Positions 32,686 through 62,167 of a DNA stretch of 64,000 nt are shown piece after piece. The notes under the pieces were generated by a model that was given only the letters and a program-made list of their open reading frames with translations, did not search any database and was not told the origin of the DNA. Within the stretch, counting starts at the first letter, position 1. The number at the start of each line of letters is the position of its first letter. Location of the stretch: NCBI RefSeq assembly GCF_054482525.1, contig NZ_CM137006.1; one strand, written 5' to 3'. Position numbers and translations under genes: made by a program.

Positions 32686-34092
32686 ATGTCAAAGCAACAG
32701 ATCGGCGTCGTCGGTATGGCAGTGATGGGGCGCAACCTTGCGCTCAACATCGAAAGCCGTGGTTATACCGTCTCTATTTTCAACCGTTCCCGTGAAAAGA
32801 CGGAAGAAGTGATTGCCGAAAATCCAGGCAAGAAACTGGTTCCTTACTATACAGTGAAAGAGTTTGTTGAATCTCTGGAAACGCCTCGTCGCATCCTGTT
32901 AATGGTGAAAGCAGGTGCTGGCACGGATGCTGCTATTGATTCCCTCAAACCATACCTCGATAAAGGTGACATCATCATTGATGGTGGTAATACCTTCTTC
33001 CAGGACACCATTCGTCGTAACCGTGAGCTTTCTGCCGAAGGCTTTAACTTCATTGGTACCGGTGTTTCCGGTGGTGAAGAAGGCGCGCTGAAAGGTCCTT
33101 CCATTATGCCTGGTGGGCAGAAAGAAGCCTATGAACTGGTTGCACCGATCCTGACCAAAATCGCCGCAGTGGCTGAAGACGGTGAGCCATGCGTTACCTA
33201 TATCGGTGCCGATGGTGCAGGCCATTATGTGAAGATGGTTCACAACGGTATTGAATACGGCGATATGCAACTGATTGCTGAAGCCTATTCTCTGCTTAAA
33301 GGTGGCCTGAACCTCACCAACGAAGAACTGGCGCAGACCTTTACCGAGTGGAATAACGGTGAACTGAGCAGCTACCTGATCGACATCACCAAAGACATCT
33401 TCACTAAAAAAGATGAAGACGGTAACTACCTGGTTGATGTGATCCTGGATGAAGCGGCTAACAAAGGTACCGGTAAATGGACCAGCCAGAGCGCGCTGGA
33501 TCTCGGAGAACCGCTGTCGCTGATTACCGAGTCTGTGTTTGCACGTTATATCTCTTCTCTGAAAGATCAGCGCGTTGCCGCATCTAAAGTTCTCTCTGGT
33601 CCGCAAGCTCAGTCAGCAGGCGACAAGGCTGAGTTCATCGAAAAAGTTCGCCGTGCGCTGTATCTGGGCAAAATCGTTTCTTACGCTCAGGGCTTCTCTC
33701 AGCTGCGTGCTGCGTCTGAAGAATACAACTGGGATCTGAACTACGGCGAAATCGCGAAGATTTTCCGTGCTGGCTGCATCATCCGTGCGCAGTTCCTGCA
33801 GAAAATCACCGATGCATATGCCGAAAATCCGCAGATCGCTAACCTGCTGCTGGCTCCGTACTTCAAGCAAATTGCCGATGACTACCAGCAGGCGCTGCGT
33901 GATGTCGTTGCTTATGCAGTACAGAACGGTATCCCGGTTCCGACCTTCGCCGCTGCGGTTGCCTATTACGATAGCTACCGTGCCGCTGTTCTGCCTGCGA
34001 ACCTGATCCAGGCACAGCGTGACTATTTCGGTGCACATACTTATAAGCGCATTGATAAAGAAGGTGTGTTCCATACTGAATGGCTGGATTAA
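32686..34092 (+). CDS. gnd: 6-phosphogluconate dehydrogenase, decarboxylating
   Basis: 468 aa; N-terminal [19 protein letters not shown]-binding motif; canonical position after the O-antigen cluster. Confidence 0.96.
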
Positions 34093-54429: not shown

Positions 54430-54975
54430 ATGATGATTTTGGTGACGGGGGGCGCACGGAGCGGGAAAAGTCGCCACGCAGAGGCGCTTATTGGGGACTC
54501 TTCACAGGTTCTGTATATCGCCACCTCGCAAATCCTTGATGATGAGATGGCTGCACGGATAGAACATCATCGGCAAGGCCGCCCGGCGCACTGGCGCACG
54601 GTGGAGCGCTGGCAACATCTTGATGAATTAATTCATGCAGACATTAACCCGAATGAGGCTGTGTTGCTGGAATGCGTTACCACAATGGTGACTAATCTGT
54701 TGTTTGATTATGGCGGCGATAAAGACCCTGATGAATGGGATTATCAGGCGATGGAACAGGCGATTAATGCTGAGATTCAGTCGTTGATTGCTGCCTGCCA
54801 ACGTTGCCCCGCAAAGGTTGTATTAGTGACTAACGAAGTGGGAATGGGGATTGTGCCGGAGAGTCGTCTGGCACGACATTTTCGTGATATTGCCGGGCGG
54901 GTAAATCAGCAGTTGGCCGCTGCGGCAAATGAAGTATGGCTGGTGGTTTCGGGTATTGGAGTAAAAATCAAATGA
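54430..54975 (+). CDS. cobU: Adenosylcobinamide kinase / adenosylcobinamide-phosphate guanylyltransferase
   Basis: 181 aa; P-loop [12 protein letters not shown]. Confidence 0.94.
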
Positions 54976-55715
54976 GTAAATTATTTTGGGCGATGCTCTC
55001 ATTTATTACGCGTCTGCCTGTACCGCGTCGCTGGTCCCAGGGACTGGATTTCGAGCATTATTCTCGCGGTATTATTACTTTTCCTTTGATTGGATTATTG
55101 CTTGGCGCGATTAGCGGGCTGGTCTTCATGGTGCTGCAGGCATGGTGTGGCGTACCACTGGCGGCACTGTTTAGCGTACTTGTGCTGGCGCTGATGACCG
55201 GGGGATTCCATCTGGACGGCCTCGCTGATACCTGTGATGGCGTATTTTCTGCACGTAGCCGCGATCGCATGTTGGAAATCATGCGTGATAGCCGTTTAGG
55301 CACCCACGGCGGTCTGGCATTGATTTTTGTGGTACTGGCAAAGATTCTGGTGTTAAGCGAGTTGGCTCTGCGTGGCGAACCGATCCTTGCATCGCTGGCG
55401 GCAGCATGTGCGGTCAGCCGCGGGACTGCCGCATTATTGATGTATCGTCATCGTTATGCGCGGGAAGAAGGGCTTGGCAATGTGTTCATTGGCAAAATTG
55501 ATGGGCGACAAACCTGCGTCACACTCGGCTTAGCCGCTATTTTTGCTGCCGTATTATTGCCGGGTATGCATGGTGTGGCTGCTATGGTGGTGACGATGGT
55601 GGTGATTTTCATCCTCGGTCAGCTTCTCAAACGTACGCTGGGCGGGCAAACGGGCGATACGCTGGGTGCAGCCATAGAGCTTGGTGAACTGGTCTTCCTG
55701 CTGGCACTGCTATAA
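54972..55715 (+). CDS. cobS: Cobalamin (5'-phosphate) synthase
   Basis: ORF 54936..55715; start at MSKLFWAML overlapping the cobU stop (ATGA), 247 aa, membrane protein. Confidence 0.93.
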
Positions 55716-55726
55716 AGAGACGTGAC

Positions 55727-56806
55727 ATGCAAATACTTGCCGATTTACTGAATACGATCCCAGCCATCGATCCTGCCGCTATGTCGCGTGCACAACGGCA
55801 TATTGACGGGTTACTCAAACCTGTTGGTAGCCTGGGAAAGCTGGAGGCGCTTGCCATACAACTGGCAGGAATGCCGGGGTTGAATGGCATACCGCATGTG
55901 GGCAAAAAAGCGATACTGGTTATGTGTGCCGATCACGGCGTCTGGGAGGAAGGGGTCGCTATTTCTCCAAAAGAAGTGACAGCCATACAGGCTGAAAATA
56001 TGACCCGCGGAACAACCGGCGTGTGTGTGCTGGCAGCACAAGCGGGCGCTAACGTCCACGTAATTGATGTTGGTATTGATACTGCTGAGCCTATCCCCGG
56101 GCTTATCAACATGCGTGTCGCACGAGGTAGCAGCAATATTGCTTCAGCTCCGGCAATGAGTCGCCGTCAGGCTGAAAAGTTGCTTTTGGACGTCATATGT
56201 TATACGCGGGAGCTGGCAAAAAACGGTGTCACGCTGTTTGGTGTAGGTGAACTGGGGATGGCAAACACGACACCGGCAGCGGCAATAGTCAGCACAATCA
56301 CTGGCCGGGATCCTGAAGAAGTGGTTGGGATTGGCGCAAACCTGCCGACAGATAAACTGGCTAATAAAATTGATGTTGTGCGTCGGGCGATTACGTTGAA
56401 TCAACCAAATCCTCGGGATGGTGTTGATGTCCTGGCAAAAGTGGGTGGATTTGATTTGGTCGGAATAGCTGGAGTGATGTTAGGTGCTGCTTCCTGCGGT
56501 TTACCCGTGTTGCTGGATGGATTTCTTTCTTATGCTGCTGCGCTCGCAGCCTGCCAGATGTCTCCTGCAATCAAACCGTATCTCATTCCTTCTCACTTGT
56601 CGGCAGAAAAAGGCGCGCGTATAGCGCTGTCGCATTTGGGGCTGGAGCCTTATCTCAATATGGATATGCGTTTAGGTGAGGGGAGTGGTGCAGCTCTGGC
56701 GATGCCCATCATCGAAGCTGCTTGTGCGATATACAACAATATGGGCGAACTTGCTGCCAGTAATATTGTTCTACCGGGGAATACGACTTCTGATTTGAAC
56801 AGCTAA
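55727..56806 (+). CDS. cobT: Nicotinate-nucleotide--dimethylbenzimidazole phosphoribosyltransferase
   Basis: 359 aa; synteny cobU-cobS-cobT. Confidence 0.94.
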
Positions 56807-56870
56807 AAACGAAAAGTCTGATAAAAGCTATACTTATCGGATAGTATTCGCGACTTAGGAAAGGGACATG

Positions 56871-57803
56871 ATGCGTCGTGTAAATATTCTTTGCTCATTT
56901 GCTCTACTTTTTGCCAGCCATAATAGCCTGGCGGTAACTTATCCATTACCTCCAGAGGGTAGCCGTTTAGTGGGACAGTCGCTTACTGTAACTGTTCCTG
57001 ATCACAATACCCAGCCGCTGGAGACTTTTGCCGCACAATACGGGCAAGGGTTAAGTAACATGCTGGAAGCGAATCCGGGCGCTGATGTTTTCTTGCCGAA
57101 GTCAGGCTCGCAACTCACCATTCCGCAGCAACTGATTTTGCCCGCCACTGTTCGTAAAGGGATTGTGGTTAACGTCGCTGAGATGCGTCTTTATTACTAC
57201 CCACCAGACAGTAATACTGTGGAAGTCTTTCCTATTGGTATCGGCCAGGCTGGGCGAGAAACCCCGCGTAACTGGGTGACTACCGTTGAACGTAAACAAG
57301 AAGCACCAACCTGGACGCCAACGCCGAACACCCGGCGCGAATATGAGAAACGAGGGGAGAGTTTGCCCGCATTTGTTCCTGCGGGGCCTGATAATCCCAT
57401 GGGGCTGTATGCGATTTATATTGGCAGGCTATATGCCATCCACGGTACCAATGCCAATTTTGGTATTGGGCTCCGGGTAAGTCAGGGCTGTATTCGTCTG
57501 CGCAATGACGATATCAAATATCTGTTTGATAATGTTCCTGTAGGTACTCGTGTACAAATTATTGATCAGCCAGTGAAATACACAACGGAACCGGATGGAT
57601 CAAAGTGGCTGGAAGTTCATGAGCCGCTGTCGCGCAATCGTGCTGAATATGAGTCTGACCGAAAAGTGCCATTGCCGGTAACCCCATCTTTGCGGGCGTT
57701 TATCAACGGGCAAGAAGTTGATGTGAATCGCGCAAATGCTGCGTTGCAACGTCGATCGGGAATGCCTGTGCAAATTAGTTCTGGTTCAAGACAGATGTTT
57801 TAA
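56871..57803 (+). CDS. ldtA: L,D-transpeptidase LdtA (ErfK)
   Basis: ORF 56868..57803; signal peptide; YkuD domain with catalytic HGT...SQGCIRL. Confidence 0.92.
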
Positions 57804-57825
57804 GAGCGTTGGTAATTAGAAAGCA

Positions 57826-57853
57826 AAAAGCCTGCTTGAAAGCAGGCTTTTTT
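57826..57853. terminator. Bidirectional terminator between ldtA and asnV
   Basis: Hairpin aagcctgctt-gaa-agcaggctt with T6 downstream and A5 upstream. Confidence 0.7.
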
Positions 57854-57858
57854 GAATT

Positions 57859-57934
57859 TGGCTCCTCTGACTGGACTCGAACCAGTGACATACGGATTAA
57901 CAGTCCGCCGTTCTACCGACTGAACTACAGAGGA
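57859..57934 (-). tRNA. asnV: tRNA-Asn (GUU)
   Basis: 76-nt sequence whose reverse complement is TCCTCTGTAGTTCAGTCGGTAGAACGGCGGACTGTTAATCCGTATGTCACTGGTTCGAGTCCAGTCAGAGGAGCCA; cloverleaf with GTT anticodon and CCA end. Confidence 0.95.
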
Positions 57935-58055
57935 ATCGTGTGAACGGGGCGCATATTAATGGCAGTGCATGGTGATGTCAAAGGGTGAAATGCATTTTTT
58001 TGTTTGTTTGCTGTCAATTTCAACAAAGTGGTGAGCTTTCAATCTTATTGGGTAA

Positions 58056-58072
58056 TGAACCATCGTGGTGCA
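58056..58072 (+). promoter_or_regulatory. Putative NtrC enhancer site upstream of nac
   Basis: tgaaccatcgtggtgca resembles the TGCACC-N5-GGTGCA NtrC consensus, ~120 bp upstream of the sigma-54 promoter. Confidence 0.45.
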
Positions 58073-58189
58073 TACCCTCCTTTTATAGGGCAGGGGAACG
58101 CGACAGCTGATAAAAAGAGCCAATGACGAATCTATCATAATCTCTTATTTGACAGTTGGTTAGCTTGTACATCAACGCCAAAATAAAAC

Positions 58190-58205
58190 TGGCAAGCATC
58201 TTGCA
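58190..58205 (+). promoter_or_regulatory. Sigma-54 (-24/-12) promoter of nac
   Basis: TGGCAAGCATCTTGCA matches the TGGCAC-N5-TTGCA consensus; ~55 bp upstream of the nac ATG. Confidence 0.85.
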
Positions 58206-58260
58206 ATCTGGTTGTAAGTAATGGCGGCACTTGGGCCGATTCTTATAAACCGGAGGCAAC

Positions 58261-59178
58261 ATGAACTTCAGACGCCTGAAATACTTCGTAAAAATTGTAG
58301 ATATTGGTAGCCTGACCCAGGCTGCTGAAGTATTGCATATCGCACAACCAGCGCTCAGTCAGCAGGTTGCCACACTGGAAGGTGAGTTAAATCAACAACT
58401 TTTGATTCGCACAAAACGGGGCGTTACGCCAACTGACGCCGGAAAAATTCTCTATACCCATGCGCGGGCCATTTTACGTCAGTGTGAGCAGGCCCAACTG
58501 GCGGTGCATAACGTTGGTCAGGCATTATCGGGGCAAGTCTCGATTGGCTTTGCACCAGGAACCGCTGCGTCATCCATCACCATGCCCTTATTACAGGCGG
58601 TTCGCGCTGAATTTCCGGAGGTCGTTATCTATCTTCATGAAAATAGCGGTGCAGTGCTTAACGAAAAACTGATAAATCACCAACTCGATATGGCGGTGAT
58701 TTATGAGCATTCCCCTGTGGCTGGTGTATCCAGTCAGGCTTTACTGAAAGAAGATCTTTTTCTGGTAGGAACTCAAGATTGCCCGGGGCAAAGCGTTGAT
58801 GTTAATGCTATCGCGCAAATGAACCTCTTTCTCCCCAGTGATTACAGTGCTGTTAGACTTCGTGTTGATGAGGCTTTTTCCCTACGGCGACTCACGGCAA
58901 AAGTCATTGGTGAAATTGAGTCTATTGCCACGCTTACCGCAGCGATTGCCAGCGGCATGGGCGTTGCAGTATTACCCGAATCGGCCGCGCGTTCGTTATG
59001 TGGCGCAGTAAACGGATGGATGTCACGCATTACCACACCTTCCATGAGTCTCTCTTTGTCATTAAATTTACCCGCCAGAGCGAACTTATCACCACAGGCG
59101 CAAGCAGTGAAAGAGTTGTTAATGTCAGTGATGAGTTCTCCAGTGATGGAAAAAAGGCAGTGGCAATTGGTGAGCTAA
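58261..59178 (+). CDS. nac: Nitrogen assimilation control protein Nac (LysR family)
   Basis: 305 aa; LysR wHTH; sigma-54 promoter upstream; synteny with cbl. Confidence 0.92.
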   Translation: MNFRRLKYFVKIVDIGSLTQAAEVLHIAQPALSQQVATLEGELNQQLLIRTKRGVTPTDAGKILYTHARAILRQCEQAQLAVHNVGQALSGQVSIGFAPGTAASSITMPLLQAVRAEFPEVVIYLHENSGAVLNEKLINHQLDMAVIYEHSPVAGVSSQALLKEDLFLVGTQDCPGQSVDVNAIAQMNLFLPSDYSAVRLRVDEAFSLRRLTAKVIGEIESIATLTAAIASGMGVAVLPESAARSLCGAVNGWMSRITTPSMSLSLSLNLPARANLSPQAQAVKELLMSVMSSPVMEKRQWQLVS

Positions 59179-59279
59179 GCATTATATCGGGATGGAATAA
59201 GATGCGGGTTTTTATTATTTGTTATGCCGGGCATTAGACTTTAACAATAACGGGAAATCTGAACTGCCCGGAGTTTACC

Positions 59280-60230
59280 GTGAATTTCCAACAACTAAAG
59301 ATAATCCGCGAGGCTGCACGTCAGGATTACAACCTGACAGAGGTTGCGAATATGCTTTTTACCTCACAGTCCGGCGTCAGCCGTCATATTCGGGAACTGG
59401 AGGATGAACTTGGCATCGAAATATTTGTTCGACGAGGTAAGCGACTGCTGGGCATGACTGAACCGGGCAAAGCATTACTGGTCATTGCAGAACGTATTCT
59501 GAATGAAGCCAGTAATGTTCGTCGGCTTGCAGACCTGTTTACCAACGATACGTCTGGCGTTCTCACTATTGCAACGACGCATACTCAGGCACGTTATAGC
59601 TTGCCTGAGGTCATTAAAGCTTTTCGCGAACTTTTCCCGGAGGTTCGGCTGGAGCTAATCCAGGGTACACCACAGGAAATTGCGACGTTGTTGCAAAATG
59701 GCGAAGCTGATATTGGTATCGCCAGCGAGCGTTTAAGTAATGACCCGCAGCTCGTCGCCTTCCCGTGGTTTCGTTGGCACCATAGTTTGCTTGTTCCACT
59801 CGATCATCCCTTGACGCAAATTACACCGTTGACGCTGGAATCAATAGCGAAGTGGCCGTTAATTACTTACCGACAGGGAATTACGGGGCGCTCACGTATT
59901 GATGACGCATTTGTCCGCAAAGGTTTGCTGGCAGATATTGTATTAAGTGCGCAGGATTCTGATGTCATTAAAACCTATGTTGCTCTTGGGCTGGGGATTG
60001 GATTAGTTGCCGAACAATCCAGCGGCGAACAAGAGGAAGAGAATTTAATCCGTCTGGATACGCGGCATCTTTTCGATGCCAATACTGTATGGTTGGGACT
60101 GAAGCGAGGGCAACTTCAACGTAACTATGTCTGGCGCTTTCTGGAACTTTGTAATGCAGGACTGTCAGTTGAGGATATCAAGCGCCAGGTGATGGAGAAC
60201 AGTGAAGAGGAAATTGATTATCAGATATAG
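59280..60230 (+). CDS. cbl: CysB-like transcriptional activator Cbl (LysR family)
   Basis: 316 aa; LysR family; immediately downstream of nac. Confidence 0.92.
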   Translation: MNFQQLKIIREAARQDYNLTEVANMLFTSQSGVSRHIRELEDELGIEIFVRRGKRLLGMTEPGKALLVIAERILNEASNVRRLADLFTNDTSGVLTIATTHTQARYSLPEVIKAFRELFPEVRLELIQGTPQEIATLLQNGEADIGIASERLSNDPQLVAFPWFRWHHSLLVPLDHPLTQITPLTLESIAKWPLITYRQGITGRSRIDDAFVRKGLLADIVLSAQDSDVIKTYVALGLGIGLVAEQSSGEQEEENLIRLDTRHLFDANTVWLGLKRGQLQRNYVWRFLELCNAGLSVEDIKRQVMENSEEEIDYQI

Positions 60231-60267
60231 CAAAAAGCCCGCTATAAAAGCGGGCTTTTCAGAAATT

Positions 60268-60343
60268 TGGCTCCTCTGACTGGACTCGAACCAGTGACAT
60301 ACGGATTAACAGTCCGCCGTTCTACCGACTGAACTACAGAGGA
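60268..60343 (-). tRNA. asnU: tRNA-Asn (GUU)
   Basis: Identical 76-nt sequence to 57859..57934. Confidence 0.95.
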
Positions 60344-60503
60344 ATCGCTGTTGAGGCACATCTTAACGGCGAAAAATCTTTTGTCAAACCCGATTTTTAA
60401 ATTTCCCAACTGTTTGCCGTTTCTATCAACAGTTTGTTGCATTTGCAGACAATTTGTTGGCGAAAATCTTTGCAGCTTTGCTGATTCTCCCTCATTATTT
60501 GAA

Positions 60504-62091: not shown

Positions 62092-62167
62092 TCCTCTGTA
62101 GTTCAGTCGGTAGAACGGCGGACTGTTAATCCGTATGTCACTGGTTCGAGTCCAGTCAGAGGAGCCA
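62092..62167 (+). tRNA. asnW: tRNA-Asn (GUU)
   Basis: Third identical copy, opposite orientation to the other two. Confidence 0.95.

Follow-up and report, generated by a model that had tools for sequence, protein, structure and literature searches.

The window, by which we mean the whole 64,000-nucleotide stretch of DNA that was analysed (contig NZ_CM137006.1 of assembly GCF_054482525.1), is a piece of the E. coli chromosome, and the region of interest in it is the ldtA / tRNA-Asn / nac / cbl locus of this species. Over positions 57800-58300 the window matches strain PCN033 with 100% identity, and the sequence of this interval is present in 5,424 of 5,426 complete E. coli genomes. The features of the locus are collected in Table 1. 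Both a sigma-54 motif and an NtrC site lie inside the 326-bp spacer that separates the minus-strand asnV gene from nac. The reading frame of nac is intact and its product shares 302 of 305 residues with K-12 Nac (99%). An Rfam scan of 57500-60500 matched two tRNAs and no leader RNA element. The three tRNA-Asn(GUU) genes listed in Table 1 carry the same anticodon, fall within 4.3 kb and flank nac-cbl and yeeO. A megablast search with a 501-bp query that included one tRNA-Asn copy hit a median of four places in each genome, a number that would fit a genome with four copies of tRNA-Asn.

Table 1. Genes, regulatory elements and candidate elements around the nac promoter (positions in the window)
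Feature	Position	Strand	Remarks
cobU-cobS-cobT	54430-56806	+	
ldtA	56868-57803	+	
tRNA-Asn (asnV)	57859-57934	-	
asnV sigma-70 promoter	TTGACA 57981-57976; TAATAT 57958-57953	-	17-bp spacer between the hexamers, then a GC-rich discriminator
Putative high-affinity NtrC (NRI) site, TGAACCATCGTGGTGCA	58056-58072	+	centre 58064, about -152 from the predicted start
Candidate second, low-affinity NtrC site, ACCCTCCTTTTATAGGGCA	58074-58092	+	among the most conserved blocks of the spacer in 80 loci
Candidate NAC autorepression site, ATC-N9-TAT, ATCATAATCTCTTAT	58134-58148	+	centred about -75 from the predicted start
Sigma-54 (-24/-12) promoter, CTGGCAAGCATCTTGCA (= cTGGCAAGCATCTTGCA)	58189-58205	+	GG 58191-58192, GC 58203-58204
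Predicted transcription start	58216	+	19 bp downstream of the motif centre (rule of PMC4591121); 45-nt leader
Shine-Dalgarno GGAGG	58252-58256	+	read from the sequence; 4 nt 5' of the nac ATG; conserved across genera
nac CDS	58261-59178	+	305 aa, LysR-type regulator; open reading frame list, named nac in the PCN033 and K-12 annotation
cbl CDS	59280-60230	+	open reading frame list and annotation
tRNA-Asn	60268-60343	-	
yeeO	to 61991	+	
tRNA-Asn	62092-62167	+	

The initial annotation had placed a near-consensus -24/-12 element in front of nac, and such an element is present. The 17-mer cTGGCAAGCATCTTGCA ends 56 nt before the nac ATG, and within it TGGCAAGCATCTTGCA (58190-58205, plus strand) departs from TGGCAC-N5-TTGCA by one mismatch and has exactly 10 bp between its GG and GC doublets. 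This is the sole match in the window with at most one mismatch to that consensus; 1.84 are expected by chance, and the consensus match, taken alone, is not significant. For the weight-matrix scan for RpoN sites that had been asked for at the same time, the matrix was trained on 41 ChIP-seq-defined K-12 intergenic sites (table in PMC4591121) with nac excluded. The nac site obtained the best score in the 64-kb window on both strands (17.66 bits) and outscored 30 of the 41 training sites, whose scores range from 8.8 to 21.4 bits with a median of 16.1. A score at least as high arises in 12% of Markov-simulated 64-kb sequences. The runner-up in the window, CTGGCACGGATGCTGCT (32918-32934, plus strand, 17.33 bits), is a sense-oriented match within gnd; since gnd is absent from the main text and tables of the K-12 sigma-54 ChIP-seq paper (PMC4591121), this match is probably due to chance or specific to the strain.

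The NtrC site provides stronger evidence than the sigma-54 motif. TGAACCATCGTGGTGCA has one mismatch to the 17-bp dyad TGCACCA-N3-TGGTGCA and is the only site of this quality in the window; the expectation is 0.02 per window, and the dyad is significant on its own. It begins 134 bp before the promoter motif, and the gap of 117 bp between the two agrees with the distance of about 120 bp at which an NtrC site had been proposed. From the centre of the dyad to the promoter GG the distance is 127.5 bp, or 12.1 turns, which puts both elements on the same helical face. It could be argued that the two motifs co-occur by chance and that nac is driven by another promoter, such as a sigma-70 promoter. 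The consensus and matrix frequencies of the sigma-54 motif given above would be compatible with this idea, but the expectation for the dyad is not, and no sigma-70-like promoter is predicted on the plus strand upstream of nac.

Published binding data bear on the same question. CTGGCAAGCATCTTGCA is letter-for-letter the motif under the K-12 sigma-54 ChIP-seq peak OS19 upstream of nac, an entry with a PSSM score of 11.669, a signal 24-fold above threshold and a mark for experimental confirmation in EcoCyc (PMC4591121). The predicted start of OS19 is 45 nt before nac in K-12, and the start rule of that study, when applied to the window, reproduces this distance (PMC4591121). NtrC ChIP-seq of nitrogen-starved K-12 gave a 59.6-fold peak at nac-cbl (PMC4066584), gSELEX placed both RpoN and NtrC peaks in the K-12 nac/asnV spacer (PMC8743547), and a combined ChIP-exo and expression study counted nac and cbl among the NtrC-activated genes (PMC9853098). 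Occupancy by sigma-54 and NtrC and induction under nitrogen limitation are thus taken from the literature; the present analysis adds the presence, significance, exact K-12 identity, deep conservation and helical phasing of the two main elements.

Conservation was assessed at two depths. Within E. coli, the spacer was aligned across six diverse lineages (K-12, ST131, O26, an O157-type strain, a urinary isolate and the window); the sigma-54 motif and the NtrC dyad are both invariant and the substitutions cluster between them. Relative to K-12, the window carries four substitutions within 58056-58205 (at 58112, 58116, 58121 and 58176) and one in the leader (58246), all five outside the recognised elements. 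For the comparison across genera, one genome was scanned for each species; this gave 80 nac loci, which represent roughly 25 named genera of enterobacteria, among them Escherichia, Citrobacter, Enterobacter, Lelliottia, Kluyvera, Kosakonia, Klebsiella, Raoultella, Leclercia and Siccibacter. A sigma-54 motif with at most one mismatch is found 62-75 nt before the nac ATG in 80/80 related loci, and an NtrC-like dyad occupies the equivalent position in 81/81 nac upstream regions (18 with one mismatch, 37 with two, 21 with three and 5 with four). The divergent tRNA-Asn/nac arrangement is kept in 72 of the 80 loci. When column conservation was computed over 80 distinct spacers, five blocks stood out: 58006-58026, the NtrC dyad, 58074-58092, 58134-58148, and the promoter together with the Shine-Dalgarno sequence.

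The distance between enhancer and promoter falls into three classes. In 72 of 81 regions the dyad and the promoter motif start 132-135 bp apart, a class that includes one Raoultella locus counted at 133 bp from a promoter at -72, for which 102 bp is tied through a second sigma-54-like match; the spacing is 122-123 bp in two regions (Pseudocitrobacter) and 112-113 bp in seven (Kluyvera group). Measured from the dyad centre to the GG, these three classes correspond to 12.0-12.2, 11.0-11.1 and 10.05-10.1 turns of 10.5 bp. As the classes differ by whole turns, the enhancer stays on one helical face relative to the promoter, as is expected for activation by looping. The shortening, by about 22 bp in the Kluyvera group (loci L046, L052-L054, L063, L067 and L068) and by about 12 bp in Pseudocitrobacter (L059-L060), results from deletions between the region of the candidate NAC site and the promoter. 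Conserved position and phasing in these 80 loci, together with the binding of sigma-54 and NtrC to the identical K-12 sequence (PMC4591121, PMC8743547, PMC4066584), confirm that the pairing, orientation and placement of the motifs in front of nac are far beyond chance. Chance co-occurrence with another promoter driving nac is effectively refuted, and we give it next to no credence.

An exception to this constancy was met within the species. E. coli 2017.02.04CC carries an IS3-family insertion of about 1.33 kb (L003, 1171-2500) right after the strong NtrC site, at the equivalent of window position ~58072/58073. The insertion puts the NtrC site 1.3 kb from the nac promoter and splits it from the adjacent conserved block, so that the enhancer arrangement is not intact in every E. 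coli.

How would these elements act together? We are highly confident that the feature is the native nitrogen-regulated promoter of E. coli nac, with likely activation by sigma-54 and NtrC through looping, probable autorepression by Nac and probable read-through into cbl. In the proposed sequence of events, the sigma-54 polymerase would sit on CTGGCAAGCATCTTGCA as a closed complex that is unable to open alone. Upon nitrogen limitation, phosphorylated NtrC would bind the dyad TGAACCATCGTGGTGCA, probably aided by the block at 58074-58092, oligomerise at the enhancer and touch the polymerase through a DNA loop of about 12 helical turns. Promoter opening, driven by ATP hydrolysis, would follow, and transcription would begin near 58216. 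Nac would then probably bind at 58134-58148, between enhancer and promoter, and damp its own synthesis, while cbl, 101 bp downstream, would probably be carried on the nac transcript. The individual parts of this scheme differ in strength, and the more tentative ones are considered in turn.

The block at 58074-58092 is a plausible second, weak NtrC site. The centres of this block and of the strong dyad lie about 20 bp, or two turns, apart, and TGGGGCA, the right half of the block, is similar to TGGTGCA. A search near 58056-58072 returned no second dyad with at most three mismatches to the NtrC consensus. The enhancer of K. aerogenes nac reportedly consists of one strong and one adjacent weak NtrC site. 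Taken together, the two-turn spacing, the likeness of the right half and this reported architecture lead us to infer a weak NtrC site here. A different reading, in which the block is the operator of another regulator, possibly Nac, that would modulate enhancer function, draws on several features of the sequence. The majority form in other genera is a 16-bp palindrome, TACCCCTTATGGGGCA, and not a 17-bp NtrC dyad; the form in the window is ACCCTCCTTTTATAGGGCA. Only the right half has a likeness to TGGTGCA. The block is at least as conserved as the strong NtrC site, and an exact ATA-N9-TAT stands at 58072-58086 in the window. This last pattern, however, contains too little information to be significant alone (15 exact occurrences in the window against 16 expected), and its N9 spacing is not kept in other genera, so that we rejected 58072-58086 as a NAC site. 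Moreover, at two turns from the strong site the block is well placed for NtrC to bind cooperatively. We judge another regulator's operator to be very unlikely and retain the weak NtrC site as the preferred reading.

A better candidate for autorepression is the ATC-N9-TAT element at 58134-58148. Across genera its CTTAT(T) half is strongly conserved and AT(C/T)A upstream is conserved. In K. aerogenes nac, the NAC repression site is reported to lie between enhancer and promoter, as cited in PMC4740811. A motif of this kind carries too little information to reach significance by itself; its conservation, and a position that matches the arrangement cited for K. aerogenes, single out 58134-58148 as a candidate, from which Nac would probably repress its own promoter near -75.

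The initial annotation had further stated that cbl is under nitrogen control indirectly. Nitrogen control of cbl agrees with its up-regulation by NtrC (PMC9853098), while the word 'indirectly' is less well chosen, read-through from the nac promoter being the likelier route. The stretch between nac and cbl (59178-59280) showed no terminator-like site, and nac-cbl appears as a single unit in the NtrC ChIP-seq study (PMC4066584). On these two grounds cbl is probably co-transcribed with nac. The competing view is that nitrogen acts on cbl solely via the Nac protein at a separate cbl promoter, without read-through. A 101-bp gap does separate the two genes (59178 to 59280), and cbl is described as having a CysB-dependent promoter of its own, which we counted for this route. 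Against it stand the points just made, namely the lack of a terminator-like structure in the gap, the handling of nac-cbl as a single unit and the place of cbl in the list of NtrC-up-regulated genes. A Nac-only route is in our estimate unlikely, although it deserves some weight, and read-through remains the reading that we prefer.

The palindromic nature of the promoter core produced one incidental signal. GCAAGCATCTTGC (58192-58204) has a 5-bp stem with an A-run upstream, and a terminator-like match reported on the minus strand (58204-58192) is this same core; we set it aside as probably incidental.

How does the window compare with known systems? The feature is no mere relative of the known nac promoter but that promoter itself. 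Its K-12 counterpart (nacp; Muse and Bender 1998; OS19, PMC4591121) occupies the same asnV-nac-cbl locus and has the identical 17-bp sigma-54 motif, NtrC dyad and distance to the ATG; it differs from the window in the four substitutions between enhancer and promoter and in the one in the leader. The nac promoter of Klebsiella aerogenes and K. pneumoniae (Feng et al. 1995, two J. Bacteriol. papers, as cited in PMC4740811) resembles the window in having its enhancer about 134 bp before the -24/-12 element. Two further common features are a divergent tRNA-Asn gene (K. pneumoniae, L083) and, between enhancer and promoter, a conserved element where the NAC repression site is placed. Like nac, glnAp2 of E. 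coli, the archetypal NtrC/sigma-54 promoter, combines a -24/-12 element with NtrC dyads more than 100 bp upstream and DNA looping. The glnAp2 promoter is said to have two strong adjacent NtrC sites and to respond to low NtrC~P, and nac to have one good site and one poor one. We know of no IHF requirement for either promoter.

The promoter and enhancer of nac were already known; the finding, though correct, is an ordinary one. As far as its cis elements and its Nac protein are concerned, the strain keeps the standard NtrC -> Nac (-> Cbl) branch of the response to nitrogen starvation. The initial annotation had called nitrogen control intact in this strain, and this holds for the cis elements and for Nac with its open frame; glnG/ntrC, glnL and rpoN lie outside the 64-kb window, and the word covers the cis elements and the nac frame. 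The comparative result illustrates the face-of-helix constraint on bacterial enhancers across roughly 25 enterobacterial genera and goes little beyond annotation.

One aspect of the enhancer sets Escherichia apart from the other genera. In the left half of the dyad (58058-58059) the window reads GAAC, departing from an otherwise near-invariant GCAC core: GAAC or GTTC is found in the Escherichia loci (the window and L008-L011), and GCAC in 66 of 71 sites of other genera. The palindrome at 58074-58092 is likewise more degenerate in Escherichia than elsewhere. In Klebsiella the two sites read TGCACCG...GTGCG and TGGCAAGCAAATTGCA, unlike their counterparts in Escherichia. Because of the GAAC half and the degenerate second block, the nac enhancer may be weaker than its consensus match suggests. 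Both features would fit an activation of nac late in starvation, at high NtrC~P only, as reported by Atkinson et al. 2002 and summarised in PMC3870243. Whether the Escherichia enhancer has been deliberately weakened, or the TACCCCTTATGGGGCA palindrome serves as operator for some regulator that has yet to be linked with nac, is a more speculative matter, and we consider such a possibility quite improbable. If true, a weakened Escherichia enhancer would mean that the level of NtrC~P needed to induce Nac is higher than in Klebsiella, Enterobacter or Citrobacter.

The remaining conserved block of the spacer, 58006-58026, belongs to the divergent tRNA gene. It reads GTTTGCTGTCAATTTCAACAA in the window and takes the form of the palindrome TTGCTGACAATTTCAGCAA in most genera. 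An NtrC site candidate picked out by eye at 58019-58035 (TTCAACAAAGTGGTGAG, four mismatches) overlaps this block and was discarded. The centre of the block lies about 71 bp upstream of the expected asnV start, and related GCAAAC...TG..GA elements are found at an equal distance upstream of the other two tRNA-Asn genes of the window, which assigns the block to the tRNA promoters. Judging by its position and its recurrence, it looks like a FIS-type upstream activating site common to these paralogous tRNA promoters.
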